The notes beneath the pieces are model-generated. The model worked only from the letters and a program-made list of their open reading frames with translations, did no database searches and was not told the origin of the DNA. 64,000 bases of DNA from Octopus vulgaris (taxonomy: Eukaryota). This document shows positions 9,020 through 51,529 of the stretch, in pieces. The stretch is taken from positions 41,044,001 to 41,108,000 of the forward strand of contig OX597838.1 of the NCBI GenBank assembly GCA_951406725.2, in the 5' to 3' direction. Positions within the stretch are counted from its first letter, which is position 1. Every line of letters begins with the position of its first letter. Both the position numbers and the translations under genes were made by a program.

Positions 9020-9324
9020 ATTATCAATAATAAAGGGTGAAATTAATTAATTTAGAAATAATCATTAATTTCACCAAGTAGAGTTCGGCATGTAAAAGAC
9101 CCATTCAAGGAAGGTTTAAGTAATACTAATTAATTAAGGGTTCAGCAACGATTTGCCTCACCACACACCGAATTTAGAAATAGCAGTCAAAAGTTTTGGC
9201 TATTCTTTCTACTTAAAAGGGATCGCCCTTTTAAGTAGAAAGAATAGCCAAAACTTTTGACTGCTATTTCTAAATTCGGTATGTGGTGAGGCAAATCGTT
9301 GCTGAACCCTTAATTAATTAGTAT
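9020..9324 (-). mobile_element. Palindromic insertion in (TA)n, probable truncated Penelope-like element end
   Basis: Arms 9123-9221 and 9226-9324 (one mismatch seen, 4-nt loop) plus an unpaired tail of about 100 bp; (TA)n on both sides. Confidence 0.7.
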
Positions 9325-18806: not shown

Positions 18807-19340
18807 CAAGCAGCATAGCCCGGCGTTGCCCTGGTATGTAAGAGCCCCTAGTAGGCAACGACTAATCCCAATCTAGTCCTTTCCCTCTAGTGAACGAAGG
18901 CGCATGTGTAGGTTGCAATGTCCTTTGTGTATACAATGTTCCTAGTTGTCCCTTTGGGCGAAAACGCGATTTCCCAAAATGTCATGATTTTATCGATTTT
19001 TTCTGATGGTAAGGTATTGCATGGAAAACTAACGTCAGAATTAAGTTTCTTAGGGTAACATTAAGCTTCACCATGAGTTTGGTGAAAATCGATTGCAAGT
19101 TGCAAAAACTACAACAGAAAATGTGTTGCATATAAAAAGCTTAGATTCTCGACCCCATGTCGAATATATCGATTTTTTCAGAACTGGGGGAACTTTTCAA
19201 AATTTTTGCTGCGTTAGTTTTGAATTATGACATTGGGCTATGTGTGTGTCAAGTTTCATCAGAATCGGTTGAAAGCCGTAGTCAGGGTGAGGGTACAACC
19301 TAACAGACACACAGACAGACAAACTGCCGTTTATATATAT
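18807..19340 (-). mobile_element. Non-autonomous Helitron-like element
   Basis: Same family as 51082-51529; subterminal cccggcgttgccctgg hairpin and (ACAG)n near the other end. Confidence 0.7.
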
Positions 19341-19406: not shown

Positions 19407-19449
<43 letters not shown>

Positions 19450-19457
<8 letters not shown>

Positions 19458-19770
19458 CCAATTAAGGACTGAACACGAAAAGTGGACAGTCAACATGCTA
19501 GATATAGACGTCAAATCGCCATTCACCACAAAAGATTATGTTCTCAGATCAAACTCAACACAAAACCATATGGTTTTGTGTTGAGTTTGATCTGAGAACA
19601 TAATCTTTTGTGGTGAATGGCGATTTGACGTCTATATCTAGCATGTTGACTGTCCACTTTTCGTGTTCAGTCCTTAATTGGTATATATAAATATTTTAAT
19701 CTTCGGATTCTTTTTTAATATGCTAGACCACTGGTCTTAATTGATAAATATCAATTTCTACCCTTAATTA

Positions 19771-19775
<5 letters not shown>
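19450..19775 (+). mobile_element. Perfect 240-bp palindrome plus tail in (TA)n, probable truncated Penelope-like end
   Basis: Arms 19450-19569 and 19570-19689 with no loop and no mismatch seen; tail 19690-19775; homologous to 34203-34502. Confidence 0.75.
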
Positions 19776-19809
<34 letters not shown>

Positions 19810-20268
19810 GTGGGGCAAAATTAGTAACCAAGATAAAATGTGCAATATTCTAATTTCTTGCTATTTCCTCCCTACCTGTTTAAATTCGTTACACTACAAG
19901 CTTTACATCATTTTGTATTGTTGCCTCATTTTTAGGGGTAAAAATTGGCCAGCATAGTTGTAGTTGTTGTTGAAGATGGGAGACTTTGAAACAGTCAGGT
20001 AACAAGTAGTTTGGGTTTTTTTTTTCAAGAAATTTTTCTTCAACTTTGACTGGATTGTAATTGAAGTTGCTTATAAAATATTTGGATAATTTTTGATGTT
20101 TAACAATCAATATTCTTTTCTCCATTGGATTCCAGGTCAGATTTTTTCTTTCCACACTTATGTCTAATTTGACCATTTTCAATTTTCAAAAAAATGATGT
20201 CTGAGATGGGGTAAAATGAGCTCTGACTTTATGAGTGGATTTGGTAGATGGAAAGTGAAAGAAGCTGG

Positions 20269-20341
<73 letters not shown>

Positions 20342-20740
20342 TCTTTATATATAAAAGAGAAGTTGTGTGTCTGTCTCCTACGATTTAGATTCCTAACTAC
20401 TCCCACATTTTGCGGTGCAGTTTAACCAAAACCGGGTATCTTATAGTCGTGATTCATATCGAGCCCTTCTGGGTATTAGCGTGCGTCTACGATGAGTCTA
20501 CGATTTAAAAAAAAAATTACCATAATTTTTTTCCATTTTAATGCATTTTTTCGCTATTATATAAGGGAAGTAACTCTCTAAAAATGTCTACGATGAGTCA
20601 ACGATTAAAAAAAAAAAAATTACCATCATTTTCTTTCCATTTTTAATGCATTTTTTTGCTATTTTTTGGCTATAACTCTCTAAAAATGCTTTATAGTTAT
20701 TTCCCTTACAAACCCGAGCAACGCCGGGCGATACTGCTAG
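20342..20740 (+). mobile_element. Non-autonomous Helitron-like element
   Basis: A|TC...cccgagcaacgccggg...CTAG|T; second copy at 33802-34193. Confidence 0.8.
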
Positions 20741-21050
20741 TTAATAATAAAAGTTTATTTGTATTATTTTATTTATGCAGTTTGGTACAAAAGCTGATTT
20801 ATTCCTGATCTGTGTGTGGAGGGTATAAGTCCTGGGGTCGATTTGCTCGACTAAAGGCGGTGCTCCAGCATGGCCTCAGTCAAATGACTGAAACAAGTAA
20901 AAGAGTAATAATCCAAGTCAGTGAAATTGTTTAACTGAAAAAAGAAAAATGGTGCCTGGAATGAGAATATCTTGTTGGACTCCTGACTGAGTTAGCTCCC
21001 TTCATTCAAAAAACCGCTTTCCTTCCATTTTTTTTTTTTCCTCCACAATA

Positions 21051-21459
21051 CTCTTTACTCTTTTACTTGTTTCAGTCATTTGACTGTGGCCATGCTGGAG
21101 CACCGCCTTTAGTCTAGCAAATCGACCCCGGGACTTATTCTTTGTAAGCCCAGTACTTATTCTATCGGTCTCTCTTTTGCCGAACCGCTAAGTGACGGGG
21201 ACGTAAACACACCAGCATCGGTTGTCAAGCAATGCTAGAGGGACAAACACAGACACACAAACATATACATACACATACATATATATACATATATACGACA
21301 GGCTTCTTTCAGTTTCCGTCTACTAAATCCACTCACAAGGCATTGGTCGGCCCGAGGCTGTAGCAGAAGACACTTGCCCAAGATGCCACGCAGTGGGACT
21401 GAACCCAGAACCATGTGGTTGGTAGGCAAGCTACTTACCACACAGCCACTCCTGCGCCT
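21051..21459 (-). mobile_element. SINE family A
   Basis: Full-length reverse-complement copy. Confidence 0.9.
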
Positions 21460-21656
21460 ATGTCAATAAAATTTATTGAAGTAAGAGCAGAAAGCTGGCA
21501 GAATCATTAGCACACAGGGCAAAATGATTAGCAGAATTTCAATCCATCTCATTACTTTCTCAGTTCAAATTCTGTTGAGGTCAACTTTGCTTTTCATCCT
21601 TTCAGGATTGATAAAATAAGTACCAGTTGAGAACTGGGGTCGATGTAATCAACTCA

Positions 21657-21812
21657 CATCATCATCATCATTGTTTGACCATGGTCGAGACAATGGAATT
21701 TACCATGCTACGCCAGACTTCACGGTCATCATGGCATTATGGAGGTCCTGTTGCTGGATGCCTGTATCCCTGGAGATTACATCAGGGTAGGAGAGTGTAT
21801 GCCCTCTGGCAT
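21657..21812 (-). mobile_element. Short RTE 3' end (SIVSTTVEQ family)
   Basis: Matches 2911-3060. Confidence 0.8.
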
Positions 21813-21977
21813 CAACTCACCCTCACTTTATTGCTACAAAACCAATAAAAATGGAAACAGAAATAAAAGAATGCCTTACTTGTCTTTCTGTTACTCAGTT
21901 ACTGTTACACTATTAGAAACCAACACTATTCCAACCAGAATTACTCTGTAGTCCTCACCTGTACAATTAATCTCACC

Positions 21978-22214
21978 TGTGTTTCCTTCTCAAGACACAC
22001 CTGGCTCATAAGGGCCGGTTTCCCAGTTTCCTTGGTGTATAGGTTCCCCACCTGGACGGGATGCCAGTCCATCGCAGGTGAGCTGCAAGATGCAGGGGGA
22101 AAGAGTGAGAGAAAGATGTTTCGCTCATAAACACACACATCGCCCGGTCTGAGATTCGAACCCGCGATCCCTCGACCGCGAGTCTGCTGCTCTAACCACT
22201 AGGCCATGTGCCCC
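21978..22214 (-). mobile_element. tRNA-derived SINE family C
   Basis: Head tggcctagtggttagagc...gggttcgaatctc (A and B boxes), body cctgcgatggactggcatcccgtccagg; decayed relatives near 48.6, 54.5 and 55.4 kb. Confidence 0.8.
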
Positions 22215-23196
22215 CATATGTGTACATCAAATGATATTGTTAGTACCTGCTCTATCCACCATTAACACTTGAACTGTGAAATTAAATTTCATATTTCTTT
22301 TTTTTTTTTTTTCAGTAATGATATTAAATATCTACCAAATAATAGAACTGGTATTTTTTGCAAGTTGCCTCACTAAACCTGACAAATCCCAACAGAGAAA
22401 AAAATCTTTTAATCCTTTAGCATTCACATTATTCTGTCAAATGTAATGTTTATTTATTCACATTATTTTGAACTAATCTTGCATTGTCTTGTAGCTTTGA
22501 GACTTTGATGAAGCAACTGTTAATTTCTTAAAACGGCATTGCAGGGTTGGTGTGAGAAACCAGATCTAGCCAGTTTGAACATAAACCAGGTAGAATATTT
22601 GAGCCAGATATGACTGGTTTAAATTCTAAAGGGTTGAACATGATATTCTACAACAGAAGTTAGGTTGGTTTATAAGGTTTATTAAGGTTGGTTTATTAAG
22701 GGTAATGAAATTTTGAGTGGATATATCTGATTTCCACATTAAAAAGGTTAATCAACGATTGAGGCCCTTGAATATCCCTGTTGCTCATCTTCAGCTGCTC
22801 TACAGTAATACAAAATAAAGAGCTTTGCTCAAGGACACTATAGTCTGCTCAGTTTGAGAATCAAACCATTGTCCTTACAGCCAGGAGTCCAATATAACCA
22901 CAGGGCAAGACACATTCACATCTGTACATGTCAGCATCATCATCACCACCATTAGCATCCAGTTTTCTATGCTCACTAGAATAGGATAGAATTTGTGGAG
23001 GCAGATTTTCTACAGCTTGATGCCCTTCCTGTTGCCAACCCTCACTTGTTTCCAAGCAAGGTGGAGGAAGAGGAAGTGATTAGACTATAAGCTTATTATT
23101 ACATATTTCCAGTGGTTGGCATATTTGGAAGGGAATCCAGTTGTAAAAACCATGACAAAACTAATCTTGTCTGTGCTGGTGCCACGTAAAAAATAA

Positions 23197-23695
23197 CCAT
23201 AAATCCTTGAATATAGTCCACCCTTGCGTATAACACGCAGGGGATTTTTAGGGGGCTGTACCTCTGAGAAACCTAAACCTTGTGTATAATATGCACCCCT
23301 TCTCTAACTTGAGTTGTGCGTAATTAAGCCAGCAGCACCTAGTCGATCAAACACTTCCGCACAAGCATGACACAATAATGGCAATGTAAATATGTTTGCA
23401 AATTGTTTTTGTTACATGTTATTCTGTTTTCTGAATACTTTTATTTTGATAAATGTTGCTTACTGCAAGTTATGGATGATTCTTTTATGACTACATTGCT
23501 TTCAGGCTTAGCTTAAGGTATTTTCACGCCCGACATCACAAAATGCGTCTGAATAAACATTGCCGGACAGCAAATAGAGACTCGGACATTGCTTAGAAAA
23601 TATTTTTCATTTTAAACCTCGTATATAGTATGCAGTAGGGATTTTGACCTTTAAATTTTAGGGAAAAAATGCGGATTATACTCGAGGATTTACGG
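23197..23695. mobile_element. Tc1/mariner-superfamily (pogo-like) MITE
   Basis: Imperfect TIRs ccataaatccttgaatatagtccac / gcggattatactcgaggatttacgg-TA; splits an older RTE-tail repeat. Confidence 0.65.
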
Positions 23696-23984
23696 TATTC
23701 AGTCCACTCTGCAGGATGGCTGGTGTTAAGAAAGGCATCCAGCAGTAACAGCCATGACAAAACAGCTACAGTAGCCTGGTTAGCTGCTGTCAAACCGTTC
23801 AACCCCTGCCAGTGTGGAAGGCAGACATTAAACAATGATGACGATGATGGTGATTATGGCATGTATGACATAACATTGTATGAATTGCATATCATTGTAT
23901 AAGATATAGAATAAAAACATGATCTGTTTGCAGAAACGGTTGTAATGTCAACTTGGCTTTCCTTTTCTTCATTTATAATAATAA

Positions 23985-24235
23985 TAATAATAATAATAAT
24001 GAAATTATTGTATACAGTGCTCAGGTGCACCACAACTTGTCAGAAAGTGCATATAAAGTACATGCAGTAATGAAGAAATGTCTGGAATGCTTGTGTGTGT
24101 ATGGAGGGGAGAAAATCAGGTGTAGTGTTGGCGAATCTCAGAAAGCATGGAAGTTTTGAAGGATGCAGTGCTCCGACAACTAACAACCGATGCCGGCAGT
24201 TTGTTCCATGCTTCAGCAACTCTCAGCGTGAAAAA
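23985..24235 (-). mobile_element. CR1-group LINE extreme 3' end
   Basis: FFTLRVAEAWNKLPASVVSCRSTASFK followed by a short UTR and (ATT)n tail. Confidence 0.8.
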
Positions 24236-25080
24236 ATTTAGATTATTATTTTTATTGTTCCCTCTGCAGCAATTAAACCCACTGAATCTTACCTTGGAGT
24301 TGTGTAGTGCTCCCTGTAATATCAATTGATGCCTTACAGATCTCCTTCTGATTTAGAAGGAGATCTGTATGCTACCCAGGACCCTGCATGATGTGTTAAT
24401 GAGGTGATAGCCAAGATTACAATTATGCCCTCTATCTATCTATATATGATTGACTCCTTCCAGTTTCCATCTATCCAATTCCAGTCACAAAGCTTTGGTT
24501 AGCACTGGTAGAAGACACTTGCCCAAGGTACAAGTATTCAAAACATGGATATTAAAGCTAATCATACAGCGAAAAGAAAGGTTGACTTTGAAGGCAAAGC
24601 TGTGTGAAAGATCAGCTTTTGTAGACTAACCAGTCCTTTCTTTATAAAGACAGGCACAGAGATGGCTGTGGTTGGGAAGCAAGCTTCCCAACCATGTGAT
24701 CTTAGGTTCAGTCCCAGTACATAGCACCTCGGATGTCTTCAACCAAAGCCTTGTGAATGGATTTTATAGAAGAATGGTAACTGACCGAAGCCTGGCTTTA
24801 ATACCTAAGTCCAAGATAGTCCTATGGCCTGTCAGTCCCTTCCTTCTGTTTTTTTGGGTGGGGGGGAGGTCCATCATTGTTCGGCCGTTTGCCAGGCCTG
24901 TCCCAACTTCACCTTGTTATTTATTTTCACTCACTCGTCTGGTCTCGGAATCGAAACCCCAATCTTACAATCATGAGTTCAATACCCTAACCACTAACCA
25001 CGTGCCTCCACACACTCACCTACCCACATAGGTGTGTCTCTGTGTTTGTGTAATTGAGTTTTAGGTTTGCGCAGTTTACT

Positions 25081-25160
25081 AGTGTCTTCTGCTATAGCCT
25101 CGGGCCGACCAAAGCCTTGTGAGTGGATTTGGTAGACAGAAACTAAAAGAAGCCTGTCGT

Positions 25161-25202
<42 letters not shown>

Positions 25203-25822
25203 TTGTGTGTCTGTGTTTGTCCCCCTAGCATTGCTTGATAACTGATGCTGGTGTGTTTACGTCCCCCGTCACTTAGCAGTTCGGCAAAAGAGACCAATAG
25301 AATAAGTACTGGGCTTACAAAGAATAAGTCCCGGGGTCGAGTTGCTCGACTAAAGGCGATGCTCCAGCATGGCCGCAGTCAAATGCCTGAAACAAGTAAA
25401 AGAGTAAAGAGAGTGACCCGCTGTTCTTGAGGAGACCTGTTGAGTCAAGTTCATCAACATCAAAATAAAAATTCAAATGGAAATTGTAGTTAAGACAACC
25501 GTGCCAGTGACACGTAAAAAGCACCGTTCGAACGTGACAGATACTAGCGTCGCCTGACTGGCATCTGTGTCGGTGACACGTAAAAGCACCAACCGATTGT
25601 GACCGTTTGCCAGCCAGCTTCGGCTCCTGTGCCGGTGGCACGTAAAAAACACTCACTACACTCACAGAGTGGTTGGCATTAGGAAAGGCATCCAGCTGTA
25701 GAAACACTGCCACATCAGACTAGAGCCTGGTGCAGCCTCCATGGCTTACTAGACCCCGGTCGAACCGTCCAACCCATGCTAGCATGGAAAACGGACGTTA
25801 AATGATGATGATGATGATGATG
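25081..25822 (+). mobile_element. 5'-truncated SINE A directly followed by an RTE 3'-UTR fragment
   Basis: SINE A tail at about 25412 abuts sequence ending ccatgctagcatggaaaacggacgttaaa(tga)n. Confidence 0.8.
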
Positions 25823-26787
25823 AATTACCCTTAAAATACATTAATTTTAAGATGAATGTATCACCTTTGGATATACTTGAATTATAAAAGCATGCATATT
25901 AGAAGAGAAAATAGCACTTTGATCATTCAGAAGTATCTAAAGAGAAACAATAAAACACATCTTAAATATAAGATGTAATGGTGTAAGAAAGTTGGGAGAA
26001 ACTTCAGGTTGTATATAGTTTTCGTTACGGTATTTCAAATAAACCACGATACTTTTAATATTCCCCATTATAAAGAAAAAAAAAAACCCTTTTGGGAAAT
26101 ACGCCGCGATTCTCCTTATATTTTTTTTCTAATTGAAATTAACAGGTTATTCTAATTATAAATAAACTTTGGTAAATAATGGAACCACCCTGGGTGGTTC
26201 GTAGTCTCTGTTGTATCAATCGGTGATATGTGACTAGAGCTAAAATAAATAAATATAAGAAAACTCTTGGCAGTGAAAAAGAAACAGCGAAAGGAAAAAA
26301 TCCAAAAGGGGAAAAGCTGTAAAAAAAACAAAAGGAATAAAAAACACTAAATAAAAAAGTTGTAAAAGGGAGATCAACTGGGATTCGAAACCGGCTCGTC
26401 AACTTTGTTTGGCGGGAAGTTTACTGTATGCATTCAATTGTCAACTTGTTTTTATATATTCCGAATATTCAATCTATTTGAAATTTTGAAAGATAAATAT
26501 TGTTTGCCAATTTTATTAGTAAATAAAATTAGAGAAACTAATAAATACTGATAATTATTTCTTTCTTGAAAGAGAAAAATTTAATTACAATTTATTGTTA
26601 TAAATTGTTGAATATTTCTTTTACAAATAATACACAGTAAACAGGTGGATGGAACGAGTGTATATGTATATATACATACATAAACACTCACATGAATACA
26701 GGGATGGCCAGAAGTCGCTATACACATTTCTAATAATAATAAAGAGATGGGTGAAGTAACTTGTGGTCATCCTGTATATCAACATAC

Positions 26788-27186
26788 GGATCTTTTCGGT
26801 TTGAACGGCAGTTTTTTCTAGCGGTGTCATATGATATTGTCACCCATAATTATGACCCTAGTATCGATCTATTGCATTTCGATCTGGGTTAGGGTTAGGT
26901 TATCTTTTTTTTCTTCACAAATGTAAATAAACCCAATCTGTTTCTTAAACGAGGGACAAATTCATACGGCACAGAATGTTGTTTACCTCAATAGACGTCA
27001 TTGATTGGTTGAAATTGCAGAAATTGAAGAAAAAAACCAACAAATATCTTACAAACTATAGAATTTTCTCAATAAAGCCAAGAGAAAAAGATGTTTTATA
27101 AACACATTCTACCAGTATACGAAGTTTAAAATTTTTTAGTTACCTAGAAATTATGTTAAAAACTGCCGTTCAAACCGAAAAGATCC
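26788..27186 (+). mobile_element. GGATC-TIR MITE
   Basis: Both TIRs; exact 8-bp TSD CAACATAC. Confidence 0.92.
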
Positions 27187-28685
27187 CAACATACACATAT
27201 ATACATTCGTGTGTAAACACAACAAATAAACATTCATGTGCTTGTATATACATATTGATTTATATGTGTGTTGTTTTTGTAAACTATTGATAGTGAAGAT
27301 AACATGAGCACAAGACTAGAAATTTGGGAGAATGGTATAAATCGATTCTAGTGCTTTATTATAAATCGAACCCAGAATGTGAGATTCAAAAATCGACTTC
27401 AGCTGGGAATCGAACTCGTTACGTAAAGCAATGTAATAAAGTATTAAGCGAAGGACAATGCATTAAAATTATATTAGTTTATTTTCTAAAGGAAATTAAC
27501 AGATGTTTTATTGTGTGTAAATATAGATTAGTAAATAAAGGACAGAGTAAGAGGGAGAAATAGTTGAAATATCAAGTACGAAACTAAAAGGTTGCAGTTG
27601 TTCAATATGTCAATGCAAATGAGTTGGGTCATAGTTTATTGACTGCGGACCTGCAACAAGCGAAAAGAAAGAAAGGAGTTGAACAGGAGGAAAATATGAA
27701 GTGAATAAGTGCTCGGAGAAAAAAATATTAATTAAAAAAAAATAATAATCAAGTTACTGTAGGATAAGAATGATCGAGAAAAATAACGAAAAAAATTTTT
27801 TATGATACTTATTAAAAATTTAATATATAAAAAAAAACGTTTTTCCATTTGTTCCAAAATGGATACATAATATATATATTTTTTAAAAAATTAGGTATTG
27901 AACACACGCCTGAAAATAAATTCTAATTTCTATATTGATAATAGTTATTATTATGTCAAGTTAGGTTTTATTAGTAATTATTATGCATATAAACATTATA
28001 TAGTAAAAAAAAATATTTGAGTATCCATGAAAAAAATTAATAATTCTAACTTCTAATTTTTAGATTGCTAATAATTTTATTAATCAGTTTGGTTTTTTTT
28101 TTATTAGCTTATTACAGTACCGGATTTCTTTTCCGTCTTCCAGAAATCCGGGAATACTTTATTATACGGTCTAAGATTACTGCATCTATTCAGTAGACAG
28201 ACTTTACTTTCGAAGATGGTTAATTTGTGTATGGCATCTTCAAAATAGCTTTGTTCTTTACTATTTTTTCAAGTGGATTCCTATAGATTAAACACATACT
28301 GCTTTAGAATTGTATTAATTTGCACCTAATGTTATTTACTTTTCTGTTTATTTTCGTTTCTTTCCAACCACAAATTTTACAACAATCCATTGAGAATTAA
28401 AGAATATTTAAGTGGTGGGAAGAAAACGAAAAAGTGCCGACGTTTCTTTATTTAATCAATATATAAATGATATAAAACTAATTAATACTCTCCTTTAGAA
28501 ACGTATTAATTTGAACCTGTGAAATACAATTTAGCTCTTTACATTTAATACTTTAAGTTTATATTATTAACGGCATTTCGTAGGTTCTGAGTTCAAATTC
28601 CGACGAAGTCGACTTTGCCCTTCATACGTTCGGGGTTGATTGAAATAAAAAAAAAAAGTACCAGCCGAGCACGGGAGTTGAAATA

Positions 28686-29007
28686 TATTTCTTTACTTCC
28701 CACAAGGGGCTAAACACAGAGGGGACAAACAAAGGGATTAAGTCGATTACATCGACCCCAGTGCGAAACTGGTACTTTATTTATCGACCCCAGTACGAAA
28801 CTGGTACTTTATTTATCGACCTCAGTGCGAAACTGGTACTTTATTTATCGACCCCAGTGCGAAACCGGTACTTTATCGACCTCACTGCGAAACTGGTACT
28901 TTATTTATCGACCCCAGTGCGAAACTGGTACTTTATTTATCGACCCCGAAAGGATGAAAGGCAAAGTCGACCTCGGCGGAATTTGAACTCAGAACGTAAG
29001 GAAACGA
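28686..29007 (-). mobile_element. SINE B with internal tandem expansion of about 6 x 32 bp
   Basis: Unit atcgaccccagtgcgaaactggtactttattt; flanked by 20-bp direct repeat cagccgagcacgggagttga (28662-28681, 29008-29027). Confidence 0.85.
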
Positions 29008-29098
29008 CAGCCGAGCACGGGAGTTGATATAATCGACTGAAAACCCGTCTCCACGAAATTGCTGGCCTTCTGCCAATATTTAAGTATATATTTATAAC

Positions 29099-29211
29099 AG
29101 TCCCACTGCGTGGCACCTTGGGCAAGTCTCTTCTGCTATAGCCCCGGGCCGACCAATGCCTTGTGAGTGGATTTGGTAGACGGAAACTGAAAGAAGCCTG
29201 TCGTATACATG

Positions 29212-29242
<31 letters not shown>

Positions 29243-29449
29243 TTGTGTGTCTGTGTTTGTCCTCCTAGCATTGCTTGACAACCGATGCTGGTGTGTTTAC
29301 GTCCCCGTAACTTAGCGGTTCGGCAAAAAAGAGACCGATAGAATAAGTACTGGGCTTACAAAGAATAAGTCCCGGGGTCGATTTGCTCGATTAAAGGTGG
29401 TGCTCCAGCATGGCCGCAGTCAAAATGACTGAAACAAGTAAAAGAGAGA
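29099..29449 (+). mobile_element. SINE family A (5'-truncated)
   Basis: Matches family consensus. Confidence 0.9.
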
Positions 29450-29454
29450 GTCTT

Positions 29455-29991
29455 CGAAAAAAAACCGGAAATTTCATAAATCCGGACTACTTCCGGTACG
29501 AAAGAAGCTTGCCGGATAATTATGTCCGGCAACTGTGTATTATTGTTATGCAAATGAGATAGGTCAAATGTTTTGCTCGCGCACACGGTTTTAAGATCCG
29601 GGTCGTTGTGTTCGTGTTCCCCCTTAGTATGTGTGTTGTGTGTGTGTTATGTCCGTGCCAAAAGCCAAAAAACTAAATTGAAACCAAACTAAAAAGATAA
29701 GAGGAAAAAAAGAAAAGGAAAAAAGAAAACACGAAACCAAAAGTCAAATGAAACCGAACCGAACCAAATTCTAGCAGCGAAGCAAGCAAAGCTTAATGTA
29801 AAACCCCAAGAGAGAAAACCTACCAACCACCCCCTATTGGAATAATAATAATAACAACAACAACAATATATATTGTCATCATTTCAACAGCAAGAATTAA
29901 GAGCACAACTGAACAGCAATTAACAAGATAATAATTAGTAATTAATTAATAATAATAATAATAAGCAGCAACAGAATCAAGAGAGAACAAA
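29455..29991 (+). promoter_or_regulatory. Probable promoter and non-coding first exon of an unidentified + strand gene
   Basis: CpG-rich unique patch with CCGGAA and ACTTCCGG ETS motifs and ATGCAAAT, then an A-rich leader ending at a consensus donor AAA|GTAAGT (29992). Confidence 0.5.
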
Positions 29992-30109
29992 GTAAGTTCA
30001 TATTTCTGTTATGTATTACCCAACATCTGTTTCTAGTAGAAGTCACCCCCAGCACTTTCTCACCATATATATATATATATATATATATACATACACACGT
30101 ATATACATA

Positions 30110-30770
30110 CGTACACACAGCCTTTCTATATATTATATATACAGAAATTGGTATATGAATGTATACACAGCCTCACTTTTATATATTTCTCCCCCTATAT
30201 ACATCTGTGTATGTATATACACACAGCCTTTCTATGTTATATATACATAAATAGGTCTATGAATGTATATACATAGCCTCACTTTTATATACACACAGCC
30301 TTTCTATATTATATATACAGAAATAGGTATATGAATGTATACACAGCCTCTCTTTAATATATTTCTCTCCCTATATACATCTATGTATACACACAGCCTT
30401 TCTATATTATATATACAGAAATAGGTCTATGAATGTATATACATAGCCTCACTTTTATATACACGCAGCCTTTCTATATTATATATACAGCAATAGGTAT
30501 ATGAATGTATACACAGCCTCACTTTTATATACACATACATACACACAGCCTTTCTATATTATATATACAGTAATAGGTACATGAATGTATACACAGCCTC
30601 ACTTTTATATACACACATATATACATACGTACACACAGCCTTTCTATATTATATATACAGAAATAGGTCTATGAATGTATACACAGCCTCTCGTTTATAT
30701 ATTTCTCCCCCTATATACATCTATGTATGTATACACACACATACACACAGCCTTTCTAAGTATAATAGAT
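30110..30770. repeat. Compound minisatellite built on acacagcc-anchored units
   Basis: Repeated acacagcctttctatattatatatacagaaataggtatatgaatgtat alternating with acacagcctcacttttatat. Confidence 0.9.
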
Positions 30771-30967
30771 ACAAAAATATGTGCATATACACGGTCTCTT
30801 TCTATATCTACTACTCTCTCTCTCTCTTTTATATATATATATACACACACACACTCTTTTGTATATATACTCCTCAATCAGTTTTTCTGTACATATCCAT
30901 ATTTTTATACACCTTTCTTTGTGTATATCAAACCTCCGTTACACACACCATTTATTTCTCATATCTT

Positions 30968-30969
<2 letters not shown>

Positions 30970-31051
<82 letters not shown>

Positions 31052-31191
31052 TACACGCACACACGCATTTAAGATATGTTGTGTATCTATAGAGAAGTAA
31101 AGGATTACGAAACAAGACTATGTATATATATATATATATATACACACACGCAATTATATATACACACACATCTATATATATATATATATAT

Positions 31192-31228
<37 letters not shown>

Positions 31229-31298
31229 TATATATATATATATATACACATCTCTATATATATATACACATCTCTATATATATATATATACATACACA

Positions 31299-31360
<62 letters not shown>

Positions 31361-31400
31361 CACACACACATCTCTATATATATATATATACACATACACA

Positions 31401-31449
<49 letters not shown>

Positions 31450-31460
31450 GTATGTATGGC
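30970..31460. repeat. (CT)n/(TA)n/(CA)n microsatellite cluster
   Basis: Seen directly. Confidence 0.95.
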
Positions 31461-31825
31461 ATATACATATACACAAACTCTTTATTTCTGTGTTTATATC
31501 AATATGTACGTTTACATTTATACACACCTTTTTTTATGTGCTTCCTTCCTCTCTCTCTCTCTCCCTCTCTCTCCATATATACATCATATATTATTTCTTT
31601 AATCCAATTTTTTTATTTCTTTTGGGTTCTTCCCTTTTCTGAAAACTACAACAGTTTGTTGCCAAAGAAATTCTCTTACAATTGCCACAGATATTTCCCT
31701 ACCCTTATAACCATTAACCATCAAATATCAATTCATACACATCAATCACAACCGACTCTATATATTTTTTACTTGTTTGTCTGACTGCGGCCAAGCTGGG
31801 GCACCACCTTAAAATATTTTCAACC

Positions 31826-31868
<43 letters not shown>

Positions 31869-32163
31869 TTCCTTTTTAGTGAACATATTTATACGAAACA
31901 CAAAAGATATAACCATTTAGGTTTTTTTTAAAAATTTTGTGTATGTTTTTTTTATATTACTCTGTGGTGGAGGGCATATTTGGTATTACTAAGAGTTATA
32001 TCAACTCTTTAGTAATTATTTTTTAAAGGAGAAATAATGGCTGATATATATATATATTCTTTTTTTAGCAGTGGCTGTAATCTGGAAGAAATTATATAGA
32101 CGTAGGCTTTCTTTAGTTTTAACCCGCATAATCCACCACCTCCACCACACACTTAAGCTACAG

Positions 32164-32211
<48 letters not shown>

Positions 32212-32274
32212 GGATTCATTTAGCTTGTGCAGTCTAAAAATATCTATTTAAGATACTAGAACACAATATAAGCA

Positions 32275-32326
<52 letters not shown>

Positions 32327-32439
32327 TAAATGGTGTTTGCGTGCGCTTGTATATATATATGTGTATGTATATATATATATGTGTGTGTGTATGTATATGT
32401 GTATATATGTGTGTGTGTGTATATATGTATGTATATATA

Positions 32440-32680
32440 TATATATAGTGAATGTTTGCGTGCGTATATATATGTATATATAGTGAATGATGTTTGCGTG
32501 TGTATATATGTATGTATGTATGTATGTATATATAGTGAATGTTTGCGTGCGTATATATATGTATATATATAGTGAATGTTTGCGTGCGTATATATATGTA
32601 TATATATAGTGAATGTTTGCGTGCGTATATATATGTATATATATATAGTGAATGGTGTTTGCGTACGCGTATGTATATGT
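32440..32680. repeat. Minisatellite of roughly 35-bp units (atagtgaatgtttgcgtgcgtatatatatgtatat)
   Basis: About six units. Confidence 0.9.
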
Positions 32681-33102
32681 GCACTGTATACAATAATTTC
32701 ATTATTATTCATTATTTTATATATATATATACATATATACGTCATACCGTTTGTATGTGCATATGTATTGTCATTCTTTGTGTGTATATATGTCATATAT
32801 CGTATAGATACGCATTGAAGTTGTGTATTTGCATATACACATGGCATTCTCAACGTGTTGATGTGGGTGTATAAATGCACGCCTATACGTCATGTAACGT
32901 GGGTGTGAGTATACAAGCACCTCCACATTGTATACACACACACACGATACTGAAATGTACAACTTTATGATTTTCCTTTATATAAACTATATATATATAT
33001 ATATTTATATATATAATTATATAGACCGACCGACCGTAACAAACAACCTATGTACTATTGTCTTACGGTACTTATTTTCGGATTTATGAACCACACACAC
33101 AT

Positions 33103-33436
33103 ATCGATCTATTGCATTTCAATCTGTTTTAGGGTTAGGGGTGGGGGGAAGGTATCTATTTTTTTCTTCTTCAGAAATGTAAATAAACCCAATCTGTTTC
33201 TTAAACGAGGGACATATTCATTCATACGGCACAGAATGCTTTTTTTTTTTTTTTTTTTACCTCAATAGACGTCATTGATTGATTGAAATTGCAGAAATTG
33301 AAGAAAAAAAACACAACACCAAATATCTTACAAACTATTGAATTTTCTCAATAAAGCCAAGAGGAAAAAAAAAGATGTTTTATAAACACATTCTACCAGT
33401 ATACGAAGTTTAACATTTTTTTAGTTACCTAGAAAT
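33103..33436 (+). mobile_element. GGATC-TIR MITE interior lacking both TIRs
   Basis: Matches the interior of 10429-10875. Confidence 0.8.
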
Positions 33437-33504
33437 TGTGTATATATGCGTGCATATCTGTATAATTTGACTATTGGCTTATAGCTTTTGATATTGAACA
33501 GATG

Positions 33505-33549
<45 letters not shown>

Positions 33550-33801
33550 CGTGTTTACAAATATATGTACTGTAGACAGCAACAATTAAATGCTTAGCAT
33601 AAGAGTTTAAAATCTTATTTTAACCCTGGTTTCCTCTCATAACCACACAAACACTCGTCTAATCCTCTCCTTTAAGCTATGGGTAGGACAGTTTATTTTT
33701 GAACTGGTGAGCCATGTTTGTTTAAAGGGCCAAGACTATGTATGTAGACAATGACGACGCGGCTGTGTGTATATGTGCTCATTTCCTTATATATATATAT
33801 A

Positions 33802-34193
33802 TCTTTATATATAAAAGTGAAGTTGTGTGTCTGTCTCCTACGATTTAGATTCCTAACTACTCCCACATTTTGCGGTGCAGTTTAACCAAAACCGGGTATC
33901 TTATAGTCGTGATTCATATTGAGCCCTTCTGGGTATTAGCGCGCGTCTACGACGAGTCTACGATTTAAAAAAAAATTTACCATAATTTTTTCCCATTTTA
34001 ATACATTTTTGGCATATATAAGGGAAGTAACTCTCTAAAAATGTATTATTAAATCTCAGAACGTAAAAGGCTACAGTAACCCCCCCCCTTTGTGGTTAGC
34101 CATATTGAGATGGCTATTATACTTTACATCTCTAAAAATGCTTATATAGTTATTTCCCTTACAAATCCGAGCAACACCGGGCGATACTGCTAG
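33802..34193 (+). mobile_element. Non-autonomous Helitron-like element
   Basis: A|TC...CTAG|T; homologous to 20342-20740. Confidence 0.8.
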
Positions 34194-34202
34194 TATATAT
34201 AT

Positions 34203-34502
34203 ATACAAATTTAAAGGACTGAACACGAAAAGTGGTGGACAGTCAACATGCTAGATATAGACATCAAAATCGCTATTTTCCACAAAGAGTATGTTCTCAA
34301 ATAAAAACTCAGCATTTGAGAACATACTCTTTGTGGAAAATAGCGATTTGACGTCTATATCTAGCATGTTGACTGTCCACCACTTTTCGTGTTCAGTCCT
34401 TTAAATTTGTATGTAAAAATATTTTAATCTTCGGATTCTTTTTAATATGCTGGGCCACTGGTTTTAATTGACTAATATCAATTTCTACCCCTATTAAATT
34501 TT
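34203..34502 (+). mobile_element. Palindrome plus tail in (TA)n, same family as 19450-19775
   Basis: Arms 34203-34302 and 34314-34412, 11-nt loop, tail to about 34502. Confidence 0.75.
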
Positions 34503-34747
34503 ATATATATATATATATATATACATACATATATGTATGTATGTATGGTTCTTAATTGTAGTTACATGAATTTAGGAAAACCTGCTTTTTTGTCTTTCCA
34601 GGTGTTTGTATGTATATATAACAAATGTGTAAAAGAAACTGTGTGTATATATGTATAATTTGACTAATGGCTTATAGCTTTTAATATTGAACAGATGAGT
34701 AAAATTTAGGTGTGTATATACATATATACGCTATTATATATTTTAAG

Positions 34748-40657: not shown

Positions 40658-43204
40658 TGTGTGTGTGACGTGTTTCTTTCAATTTCTGTCTACCAAATCC
40701 ACTCAGGGCTTTGGTCAACACGAGACTATGGTAGAAGACGCTTAGCCAAGGTGCCACGCAGTGGGACTGAACTCGGAACCATGTCAATAAGAAGCAAGCT
40801 TCTTACCACACGGTAAATAAATATGACTAGCACTGCCATTGCTTCTCAAAAGCCTATGTGGTTTCAATTTTGAGTCGCACTTGTGTTGGTATTTAGGTCC
40901 TGGAGGAATTTTAAGAGCGGGTTTCATGTTTCTTCTGTTGCTGCCTCACGGTGTTCATTGATTTATTGATTTCCCGCCATATTTGGGTAAGTGTTCCTCC
41001 CTTCCAACTTTGTTTCCTCATAACATTCAGAAAAATGGATGTTTTTTTTTAAAATGTAATTTTCCATAAATACATTTTATACGGTATAGATTCCGATCGT
41101 ATCAGAATTTAGCGTTGAAAAAAATTGGTGAGTGCATATGTACTGAATGCTTTTTTTTTTTTTTTTTTTCAAAATTTCAAACTTCATGTAGACGTGCTCA
41201 CTTTTTTCTTTTTTCTTACATCTGATATAATCGTAATTTACATCATCTGAGAGGTATTTGTAGAAAAATTCATTCGAAAACATTCTTCTGAAAATTATTT
41301 GGGAACAGTCGAAGTGGGGGTAGGTGCACACTTATGTAGGTTTTACTTTTTTCGGGTTGCTCCACTCGTCTCAGTGAGTAGTACCTGTAATTCGAAAGGG
41401 CCAGCTCTGTCACGTTCTGTAGTGCCACGTTGAATCTCCCTGAGCACTACGTTAAGGGTACGCGTGTCTGTGGAGTGCTCAGCCACTTGCAAGTTAATTT
41501 CACAAGCAGGCTGTTCCGTTGATCGGATCAACTGGAACACTCTTCATCACAACTGACGGAGAGCCAAGCCTGCATCGAGTTCGAATTATGCCAAGGTGGA
41601 CATTACCTTTCAAGCTTCACTTAGGTCGACAAAGTACCCACAAGTCACGTACTGGGGTTGGATGTAAAATATAATCTAGTCCCTCCCCAAAATATGTACC
41701 TTATGCAAATGTCAGGAATTGTGTTCTTCTACTTAAGATACAATGTCCGGAAGTGTTTTATTTTGCTCGAGTGAACCTTCATAGCCATTCGATGTCTAAA
41801 AAAATCGTATTATATTTTTATCCGTAAATTGTATAAAAAAAAGTAGGTATTGTGGAAGTATAACTAATTTATGGATCTTTAAGGGTCATATGGGTCCTGA
41901 TTGAGGACAACCGGTTTAGTTGATGCCATAGACTCTGTACTTGACAGATATTTTTTATTGAACCTAGAGATAAACGGGACAGCACGGAATTGTTTCGGAT
42001 TCTCTAACAATTCTATTCACCAGTTATAATAATAATTTCAATTTTGCCACAAGGGCAGCTTAGGGGAGGTGGAGGTGAGTCGATTATATCAACCCTAGTG
42101 TTCTTACTTTATTGAGTCCGAAAGGATGAAAGGCAACCTCAGCAGAATTTGAACTCAACGTAGCAACAGGCGAAATTCTGCTAAGCATTTTGCCCGGCGT
42201 GCTAACGATTTTACCAGCTCGCCGAATAATAATAATCATCATCATCATTTAACGTCCGCTTTCCATTAAATGATGATGATTATTATTATTCGGCGAGCTG
42301 GTAAAATGTCCTGATGCAGTTCCAGGCAGTGGCTCTCGTGGCTTCTGATCTTAACTGATTGGAAGTGTTATCATGTACATTGTTTTGTCTTGCTATAATA
42401 GATGAGCTACAGCAAATATTCTGCTCAATACCACAGATTTGCTTCTCAGTTGTTTGACCATAACCAGTTGAGCATGTCCCTTAGTGGCTGACGATATGTG
42501 CATCTCTGATCACGAGCAGAAGTTGCTGGGGAGCATCATAGACGTGTGTGATAGGAATTCTTAGAGGTTTGGATAATTCACCTTTGGAAACATGGGTGGT
42601 TCATTCAACATCCTTAACCCTTATTCAGGGACCTTTTGTGCGGAATGGGTTACTCGACCAGAAAAAAAATTCTAACTGGGCCCCACCTGCAAGGTCATGC
42701 GCTGTTTATCTTGATATGAAATCACCATGTCGCGCACATATGGTTGTATGTGCCTAGTGTACCCTTATCAGACAAGTAGTCATGATGGTTATACTGGGCT
42801 TCATATATTTGTACCCCAGTGTCACTTTGATGGCATGCGCTGCTCTCTCACTCAATAATAATAATAATAATAATGACGATGATTTCAGATTTTGGCTCAA
42901 GGTGAACACTCTTTTTAGGAAGAGGTTCTACGTCGATGGCATCGACCCCATTGCTCAATTGTTATATATTTTATTGATTTCCCGAAAAGATGAAATGCTG
43001 CAGAAGGTGAAGAGCCGGAATAAATGCTGGCAACCAATTCTCCCAGCTCACAGCCCATTAAAAAAAAAAGTTTGTTTTGCAAGATTCTTCATGTGAAATC
43101 GTATTGAAACAATGTTACACCTGCGATGGTCATATTTTGCCTATTAGACACACATTGTTAATTCTATCTTATCTTCACCTTTGGCTTTATTTTAATAACT
43201 TTAC

Positions 43205-50070: not shown

Positions 50071-51081
50071 ATGATGAGTTTCTTTCAATTTCTGTCTACC
50101 AAATCCACTCAAAAGGCTTTGGTTGGCCTAAGGCTACAGAAGACACTCACCCAAGGTGTCACAGTGAGACTGAACCTGGAACCATGTGGTTGAGAAGCAA
50201 GCTTCTTACCACACAGCCACTCCTACGCCTATAAATTTTTTTCACTTGTTTCACTTAAAAGAAAAAATCCAGGTTTTGGATGTGGCCTGGATATTCAGAA
50301 TGTTGAGCACTGGAATAAATGTTCCTGAATAGTTTGAATTTATGTGAAGGTTACAGATAAAGGTATTACCTTTGAGCAGACACTTTGAAATTACATCTCA
50401 TCCAAGCAAGCATGAGGGAAAATGGATGTTAAATGATCGACTACTGTCCTACACCTGCTGAAAGTTGAGAATAAATCCATTTAGATTTGGCAAAGTACAA
50501 GGATACGGCTTTCTGGTGGTATTTAATATAAACAAGCAAAAGGTCCTCAATTGTGCAAATGGGAAGTGCTGCTATTTATGAAATCAATGAAATTCTGATG
50601 TGCATTTGCACTGCTCGGAAGTTGCCAAAAATAATTGTAAAAATGGGCACCAATTCAAATCTAGTGAATTTGAGAAATGGTACTGATTCCGAACTATGGC
50701 TGGTAGTCCCTTTCACCTGCCTTCTATTTGAGAAGGTTGAAGTTTGGTCAGACCTTTCAAAGAAGTTGTGAAAATTCTTTGGATAGGCAAAATGGTAAAG
50801 CTTCAGGAATTGCTTTTCCTAAGTTTTCATAAGTTTTCATAACTAAATATCTGAAAACAGGCATGGCCATTTAGGATAAACTAAATAAAAATTTTAAAAA
50901 GTAGGGGGGGGGGCACTTTTTAAAATTTTTATTTAGTTTATCCTAAATGGCCATGCTTGTTTTCAGATATTTAGTTAACTCTGGTTTCATGCATTCTGAG
51001 TAATATAAAACTTTCCTTTCATAAGTCCTAAATCACTCTGGTGCCCCGCTGCCAAAGAAAATTGGGAACGTGTATCAATTA

Positions 51082-51529
51082 CTAGCAGCATTGCCCGGGT
51101 ATGTAAAAGCCCCTAGTAGGCAACGACTAATCCCAATCTAGTCCTTTCCCTCTAGGGAACGAAGGCGCATGTGTAGGTTGCAATGTCTTCTCTTCACTCG
51201 AATACTTCCGTGTATACGATGTTCCTAGCTATCCCTTTGGGCAAAAACATGAAAACATCATTGCGCCTCCCAACGCGTGAACAGCCCACGAACAGTCCAG
51301 AAAATGTGTTGCATATAAAAAGCTTAGATTCTCGACCCCATGTCGAATTTATCGATTTTTTTCAGAACTGGGGGAACTTTTCAAAATTTTCGCTGCGTTA
51401 GTTTTGAATTATGACATTGGGCTATGTGTGTGTCAAGTTTCATCAGAATCGGTTGAAAGCCGTGGTCAGGGTGAGGGTACAACCTAACAGACACACAGAC
51501 AGACAAACTGCCGTTTATATAGAGAGAGA
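51082..51529 (-). mobile_element. Non-autonomous Helitron-like element
   Basis: TC...CTAG on the minus strand; homologous to 18807-19340. Confidence 0.75.

Follow-up and report, generated by a model that had tools for sequence, protein, structure and literature searches.

Head-to-head insertions of a 507-bp tandem family in Octopus vulgaris pair one short with one long end and suggest two-ended priming

A 64,000-nt stretch of the Octopus vulgaris genome (GenBank assembly GCA_951406725.2, contig OX597838.1, forward-strand positions 41,044,001 to 41,108,000; here called the window, whose positions serve as coordinates) holds two palindromes with a tail on one side, elements 1 and 2. Both derive by 5' truncation from a 507-bp tandem unit without coding capacity. 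At the genomic loci compared (given L-numbers, e.g., L004), the 3' ends of copies of this unit fall at two fixed sites separated by about 92 nt, an internal, short one (S) and a distal, long one (L). Most insertions consist of two arms set head-to-head, one ending at S and the other at L. This pairing suggests that both sides of the target break are likely copied separately from RNA. The explanation preferred here, with a probability of roughly 0.7, is two-ended (twin) priming: the two ends of a broken (TA)n tract would prime at two RNA sites, and the resulting cDNAs would be joined centrally.

The pairing of ends is evident from counts. Exact end patterns running into (TA)n were found at 686 S sites and 362 L sites, and reversed-pattern controls gave 0; the S:L ratio itself is meaningless because the two patterns differ in sensitivity to subfamily variants. 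Among 110 non-redundant insertions, from which those cut by a locus end were excluded, 92 are head-to-head and 18 single-armed. The head-to-head class, in which one segmental duplicate is counted twice, comprises 84 S+L pairs, 3 L+L, 2 S+S and 3 others. When only insertions anchored on the end patterns are considered, 69 of 72 are S+L. Subfamily B, to which element 2 belongs (nine insertions found, element 2 included), has S+L in 7 of 8 head-to-head insertions. The (TA)n targeting that had been proposed from the window alone is supported, with (TA)5 or more on both sides of 78 of the 84 S+L insertions. The centres where the arms meet vary across the whole unit, as seen in a list of 170 ends. 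Four apparently single-armed copies (L014, L090, L026 and L242) have 8-10-nt inverted S-arm stubs at the left (5') junction, as if a second priming had aborted early.

Both elements in the window have this anatomy. Element 1 lies between (TA)n targets at 19410-19457 and 19775-19806. Its inverted arm (19458-19569, minus strand; unit positions ~296-408) ends at the S site, the direct arm (19570-19689, plus strand) runs through the internal S site with its TA run (19682-19689), and an 85-bp tail (19690-19774, plus strand) continues to L. The palindrome, 19450-19689, has arms of 120 bp and is perfect and loop-free. Element 2, from the older subfamily B, sits between (TA)6 (34194-34205) and a right-hand (TA)n (34502-34523). 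Its inverted S arm (34206-34313, minus strand) is followed by a direct arm and tail reaching the L site (34314-34501, plus strand). The final 11 nt of that S arm (34303-34313) appear as a loop between arms at 34206-34302 and 34314-34409, which BLAST aligns at 95.4% identity; the loop is template sequence in S-arm orientation and continues the S arm. The direct arms of elements 1 and 2 are 87.5% identical. The palindrome-plus-tail features of the original prediction are therefore real, as are the variants listed for the arms of each element and the common internal stop of both inverted arms, ~92 nt short of the element end. The arms of element 1 are identical; those of element 2 are not, differing by a single indel and a single CpG-type change.

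Short, non-coding, palindromic and located in TA, such elements resemble miniature inverted-repeat transposable elements (MITEs), fold-back DNA transposons, or assembly artefacts from folded-back reads. An origin of this kind is very improbable. Because the centres are variable and span the whole unit, these are not MITEs; the constant length, the terminal inverted repeats on either side and the fixed centre of that class were not found, and tandem multimers and a predicted hammerhead motif exist. Variable centres combined with a fixed internal end had been expected, and are seen across copies. An artefact is hard to reconcile with ends that are unequal, flanks that differ on the two sides without mirroring, and the differing arms of element 2. 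Furthermore, inverted-to-direct joints with centres other than that of element 1 occur in contigs from three of four public DNA runs, which come from different studies. Among the contig pieces listed, which skip TA repeats and of which none spans position 19,569, neither the exact centre of element 1 nor an empty allele was seen.

The same rule is followed by an autonomous Penelope-like element (PLE) of the Hydra type, with a 2591-bp unit that lacks DNA similarity to the 507-bp unit. Twenty pairs of its copies were chosen from 150 matches on the basis of spacing and orientation, without regard to the type of end. One (L196) ran off the sequence retrieved for it, and 17 of the 19 complete pairs are S+L; none is L+L, none is S+S, and L197 and L203 have ends at neither site. 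The assignment to the Hydra type was made by seeking motifs in a 717-aa frame against the clade definition in PMC8557442, section 11. The element is below 3 kb, has just one open reading frame (ORF) with a C-terminal GIY-YIG motif, carries RWK, DKT, CxCX5C, CxxC and CxH, and targets (TA)n; the Pfam GIY-YIG match in this frame is weak (E 0.017, below the cut-off). It also contains a hammerhead-like stretch with one core letter altered. The element, represented at L184:7021-9611 (G000:C16), is very young, with copies 99% or more alike and frequent tandem and head-to-head arrays.

A third insertion of like anatomy, with the L arm on the left and the S arm on the right, lies in the window at 9024-9321. 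It belongs to a second hammerhead-bearing tandem family, which has a ~600-bp unit and whose S end carries a 14-nt motif also present at the 507-bp family's L end. This family was considered as a partner of the 507-bp unit and rejected. Tails are ~92 nt long in the 507-bp family, 66 nt in the Hydra-type element and ~104 nt in the second hammerhead family. By eye, the S and L sites of all three families have a loose upstream C-run and then AT-rich letters, with a TAAAT-like word after these in the 507-bp and Hydra-type families. This pattern is a candidate for a duplicated binding motif.

Evidence on how the two arms arise comes from their junctions, analysed at 85 of the 92 head-to-head loci (L005, a segmental duplicate of L004, and the complex L013, L049, L116, L124, L125 and L131 were dropped). 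The first possibility is fold-back. Priming would occur once, at L, and the cDNA would fold back and copy itself as far as the internal TA site, which would then anneal to the other target end. Related self-priming has been proposed for Penelope palindromes (PMC3846280), and the original prediction probably likewise meant that the inverted arm is copied from the long arm. The reach of the arms does not agree with this. In 81 S+L insertions, the L arm extends more than 20 nt further 5' in 22, the S arm does so in 28, and the two lie within 20 nt of each other in 31. At least 20 nt absent from the whole L arm are carried by 24 of these S arms, and six pairs have no overlap. With S-arm sequence missing from the L arm, simple fold-back of the long arm fails, and as a general mechanism it is excluded. 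Of the near-register loops, 9 continue the S arm and 13 the L arm, and the loop of element 2 is itself S-arm sequence. The S-longer class, that loop and the L-primed tail together mean that both arms need RNA, barring repeated later deletions. Nor does fold-back offer a reason for copying to halt at S where the TA run is interrupted. It is therefore an unlikely account of the family at large, although the sharing of alleles between arms fits it and it could explain part of the one third of insertions whose arms stop in register.

The S site itself has TA homology of 8 nt in the young subfamily; in subfamily B the run is broken, and in the Hydra-type element the TA-like match measures ~3-7 nt. 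Because of this interruption and shortness, it is probably the protein that selects the site, assisted by annealing. Annealing of the TA site, first supposed to set the internal end, is not supported as its sole determinant: subfamily B pairs S with L all the same. Central joining appears to make use of short matches. Microhomology of at least 2 nt was found at 20 of 34 clean young junctions (18% expected) and inserts at 16 of 51 young junctions, both figures being BLAST-based and approximate. In one insertion, 82 bp of non-unit sequence lie between the arms (L019:1214-1295), the start resembling a short interspersed element; this insert suggests a template jump.

The variants carried by the arms bear on their source. 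The 67 overlapping-arm insertions compared have 244 variants common to both arms, 17 of them unseen in other sampled insertions. At common polymorphic sites, the two arms carry the same minor allele in 67 of 76 cases (0.15 expected from permutation), and in young copies they agree on minor alleles at 31 of 31 (permuted 0.44). Such sharing favours derivation of both arms of an insertion from one template or source, and to this extent the earlier proposal of a single template is upheld. The two-copy comparison on which that proposal relied is by itself no proof of fresh copying, since the listed variants, although present in both arms, mark subfamilies: the direct arm of element 1 is 99-100% identical to its other top genome matches, and the variants of element 2 recur in other copies of subfamily B.

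One alternative that needs no strand displacement to explain overlapping arms is priming by two separate RNA-protein particles, one at each break end, a form of dual priming postulated for L1 (PMC2837659). Two free particles would be expected to give frequent S+S and L+L insertions and mixed alleles, and neither is common; the excess of in-register stops also requires coupling. The 28 positions at which arms differ by common alleles, considered below, speak for it, and it is given a probability as low as that of fold-back. Much less probable still is that single-arm insertions were made palindromic later by host repair, conversion or hairpin processing. Single-arm copies do exist, and conversion would homogenise the arms. 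This origin, however, should not leave the flanks unmirrored, nor place the outer end of the second arm at a fixed element-internal site in three unrelated families, and the second arm frequently has sequence absent from the first.

Several observations weigh against two-ended priming, at least in its simplest form. In-register centres (within 3 nt) occur at 28 of 85 junctions, as opposed to 3.1 expected for independent stops, a ~9-fold excess; several fall on hexamers that are palindromic by nature, and small templated inserts are often present. Hydra-type pairs show the same tendency, with 5 of 20 in register within 25 nt (0.64 expected; the offset test used L153, not L203). This excess implies that the stops of the two arms are coupled and that fold-back contributes. 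It would be explained if both enzymes reach the same RNA end, or if one cDNA end folds back before pairing. Only about one third of insertions are in register, so that the mostly perfect palindromes foreseen from elements 1 and 2 are not the general form. Of 11,662 positions compared between arms, 160 differ, in part through alignment noise, and at 28 of these both alleles are common; some insertions may therefore use two RNAs. Allele sharing could also stem from shared age or later conversion. Finally, the rule of one S and one L end is not absolute. Single-armed copies make up 18 of the 110 insertions of the main sample, and in the older subfamily C, nine head-to-head insertions comprise 6 S+L, 2 S+S and 1 unclear, with single-arm and two-arm copies at 15:9 (this subfamily was sampled for long copies). 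To these points may be added that no partner enzyme linked by sequence to the 507-bp unit was found.

With two-ended priming retained as the preferred explanation, a route of five steps can be proposed. Tandem or circular unit RNA would be bound in trans by a GIY-YIG/reverse transcriptase (RT) protein, probably of the Hydra type and probably a dimer. (TA)n would be cut on both strands. Reverse transcription would then be primed at L by one 3' end and at S by its counterpart, TA microhomology helping without dictating the choice. Each cDNA would stop independently, or both would reach one point. Head-to-head joining would follow by short microhomology, by a small insert, or after one cDNA end has folded back and paired with the other. 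The RNA stretch between the two start sites would give the tail. It is somewhat favoured, in addition, that such priming is programmed and is how (TA)n-targeting PLEs and their retrozymes normally integrate, a dimer assigning the two motif-marked start sites of one RNA, one to each end of the double-strand break. If so, each complete insertion would consist of two arms set head-to-head, one of them short-ended and the other long-ended. The tail, the inverted pseudo-long terminal repeat (pLTR) and the missing second-strand step would be explained together, and antisense self-priming would be replaced.

The element itself is very probably a PLE-mobilised non-LTR retrozyme (LTR, long terminal repeat), i.e., a non-autonomous PLE derivative, and the family is young. 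Longer copies of elements like 1 and 2 run into the 507-bp unit in head-to-tail arrays. There are 209 exact unit-to-unit junctions, up to six unit segments occur within one arm, and a run of at least 17 unit junctions is present on C11. The tandem unit, fixed 3' ends, tail and 5' truncation support the Penelope-like origin suggested at the outset, and with the inverted 5' copy and tandem copies they are the marks of mobilisation by an endonuclease-positive (EN+) PLE. As in retrozymes, the short tandem unit is found as monomers to multimers, each unit with a predicted type I hammerhead. Lack of coding capacity, of an LTR, of a primer binding site (PBS) and of a polypurine tract (PPT) was judged from ORF absence, with no separate search for PBS or PPT. 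Across 180 loci with the unit, a PLE ORF attached to it was not found; the unit is therefore non-autonomous, and an autonomous PLE with an RT and GIY-YIG ORF was rejected as its identity. The longer copies with hammerhead and ORF that had been anticipated thus exist in respect of the hammerhead motif alone. Older subfamily C, tried as a route to an autonomous partner, has no ORF-linked copy. An odd insert beside one copy led, by way of decayed PLE fragments, to the Hydra-type family, which was reached by proximity. No significant DNA match to the unit was detected in this one autonomous PLE family compared, candidates numbering 22,100 overall.

The predicted hammerhead lies upstream of the portion present in the window. 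Its structure was drawn by hand from seven variant sequences of several subfamilies. Core letters are invariant and helices I-III covary, with compensatory, both-sided changes in 10 of 20 pairs and 97.7% of cells paired, compared with 24-42% in slid controls. An Rfam scan of three loci returned no hammerhead match, merely sub-threshold hairpin matches, and the minimum-energy fold of the unit forms helices I and II but not III. The call consequently rests on motif and covariation. Contigs from four runs presumed to be RNA span the whole unit, two of them with a unit-to-unit joint; circles and tandem DNA or RNA are indistinguishable in such contigs, which were unused as evidence. Both arms have a stop hotspot at unit positions 281-320 (L028:1486-1525), where 53 of 119 arms at risk end (0.45, versus 0.03-0.18 elsewhere). 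It sits 30-70 nt 3' of the predicted ribozyme cut near unit position 250. Ribozyme cleavage is not supported as the cause of the common stop, as just 8 of 66 stop in 241-280, near that cut. Candidate causes of the hotspot are the start of an RNA, a block to the RT, and resection.

The window holds other repeats as well. A ~400-bp element with a TC start and a hairpin-CTAG end has two copies (84% identity) at 33802-34193 and 20342-20740; these are presumably Helitron-like. A further element with a similar hairpin end occurs near 18813-18831 and has a copy at 51088-51521. The Helitron-like neighbours of elements 1 and 2 have no BLAST match to each other, and either is present at just two further loci (L024 and L112) among those blasted. 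The association with Helitrons seen originally is therefore incidental. Elements 1 and 2 were also rejected as Helitrons or Helentrons themselves: they terminate at S and L sites within (TA)n, and the TC/CTAG elements are separate. Two more palindromes with spacers, derived from other repeats, are at 42187-42307 and 50830-50975.

Known systems share much with the 507-bp family. The accessible text on metazoan non-LTR retrozymes describes non-coding tandem units with one type I hammerhead each (predicted here), monomers to multimers, low GC and co-occurring autonomous PLEs (PMC7229834; bioRxiv 10.64898/2026.07.22.740005), as in the octopus family. Units of 170-400 nt were first described by Cervera and de la Pena in 2020 (PMC7229834), a range the 507-bp unit exceeds; it falls within the 51-972 bp given in the 2026 preprint of Li, Clavereau and Pollet (bioRxiv 10.64898/2026.07.22.740005). 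Head-to-head insertions, a tail or (TA)n targeting do not appear in the accessible portions of these descriptions. Cleavage and circular RNA are only predicted for the 507-bp unit. The case for animal retrozymes moving by PLE machinery has been one of co-occurrence and pLTR similarity, to which insertion-level evidence is now added.

EN+ PLEs, as summarised by Craig et al. in 2021 (PMC8557442), are truncated at the 5' end and occur as partial tandems; beside them lies an inverted copy, itself 5'-truncated, one end alone bears a tail, and the target is (TA)n. Palindromes at the inverted junction of Penelope were read by Arkhipova et al. in 2013 as self-priming on an antisense template (PMC3846280). 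All of these features are common to the 507-bp family. In contrast, the 507-bp unit lacks an ORF, the published tail is 30-40 bp rather than ~92 nt, and the tail is called optional or "often at one end" in the text available (PMC8557442), whereas in octopus the one-S/one-L pairing is near-obligate. An inverted copy with a tail is thus textbook PLE anatomy; the apparently new part is the quantified one-short/one-long rule. No published statement of that rule or of PLE twin priming was found in a search whose coverage lay outside subscription papers and supplements, where it may be noted. The origin of tandem and inverted structures and tails in PLEs has been named an open question (PMC8557442). 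With hundreds of near-identical recent insertions in the octopus genome, and at least three unrelated families following the same short/long rule, this question becomes countable and bench-testable. Insertions of the 507-bp type are also a recurring source of palindromes in this genome. The value of the finding rests on the testable end rule more than on the element itself.

Twin-priming inversions are a minority of L1 insertions. In that process, priming by the second target strand takes place within the RNA, and the inverted segment that results is joined through microhomology (PMC2837659), features that octopus insertions would share on the reading preferred here. The published account for L1 differs in its variable second priming sites and in inversion with deletion; octopus insertions have a fixed second site and mostly overlapping arms, i.e., an inverted duplication, and this is the majority form. 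A biochemical parallel is Poseidon PAc, an anole PLE studied in vitro by Frangieh et al. in 2024 (PMC11167929): the enzyme cuts and extends both strands, the tail is set by two internal sites at which RT starts, and a dimer is predicted. Two start sites, extension of both strands, an AT-rich target and a predicted dimer all have their counterpart in the octopus family or in the route proposed for it. The PAc start sites, in the text available, are non-homologous to the target and show no strand difference, whereas those in octopus carry short TA matches and the two insertion ends use different sites (PMC11167929). By this comparison, L1-like twin priming would appear to fit the octopus insertions better than the published self-priming reading, with the modification that the second site is fixed and the arms overlap.

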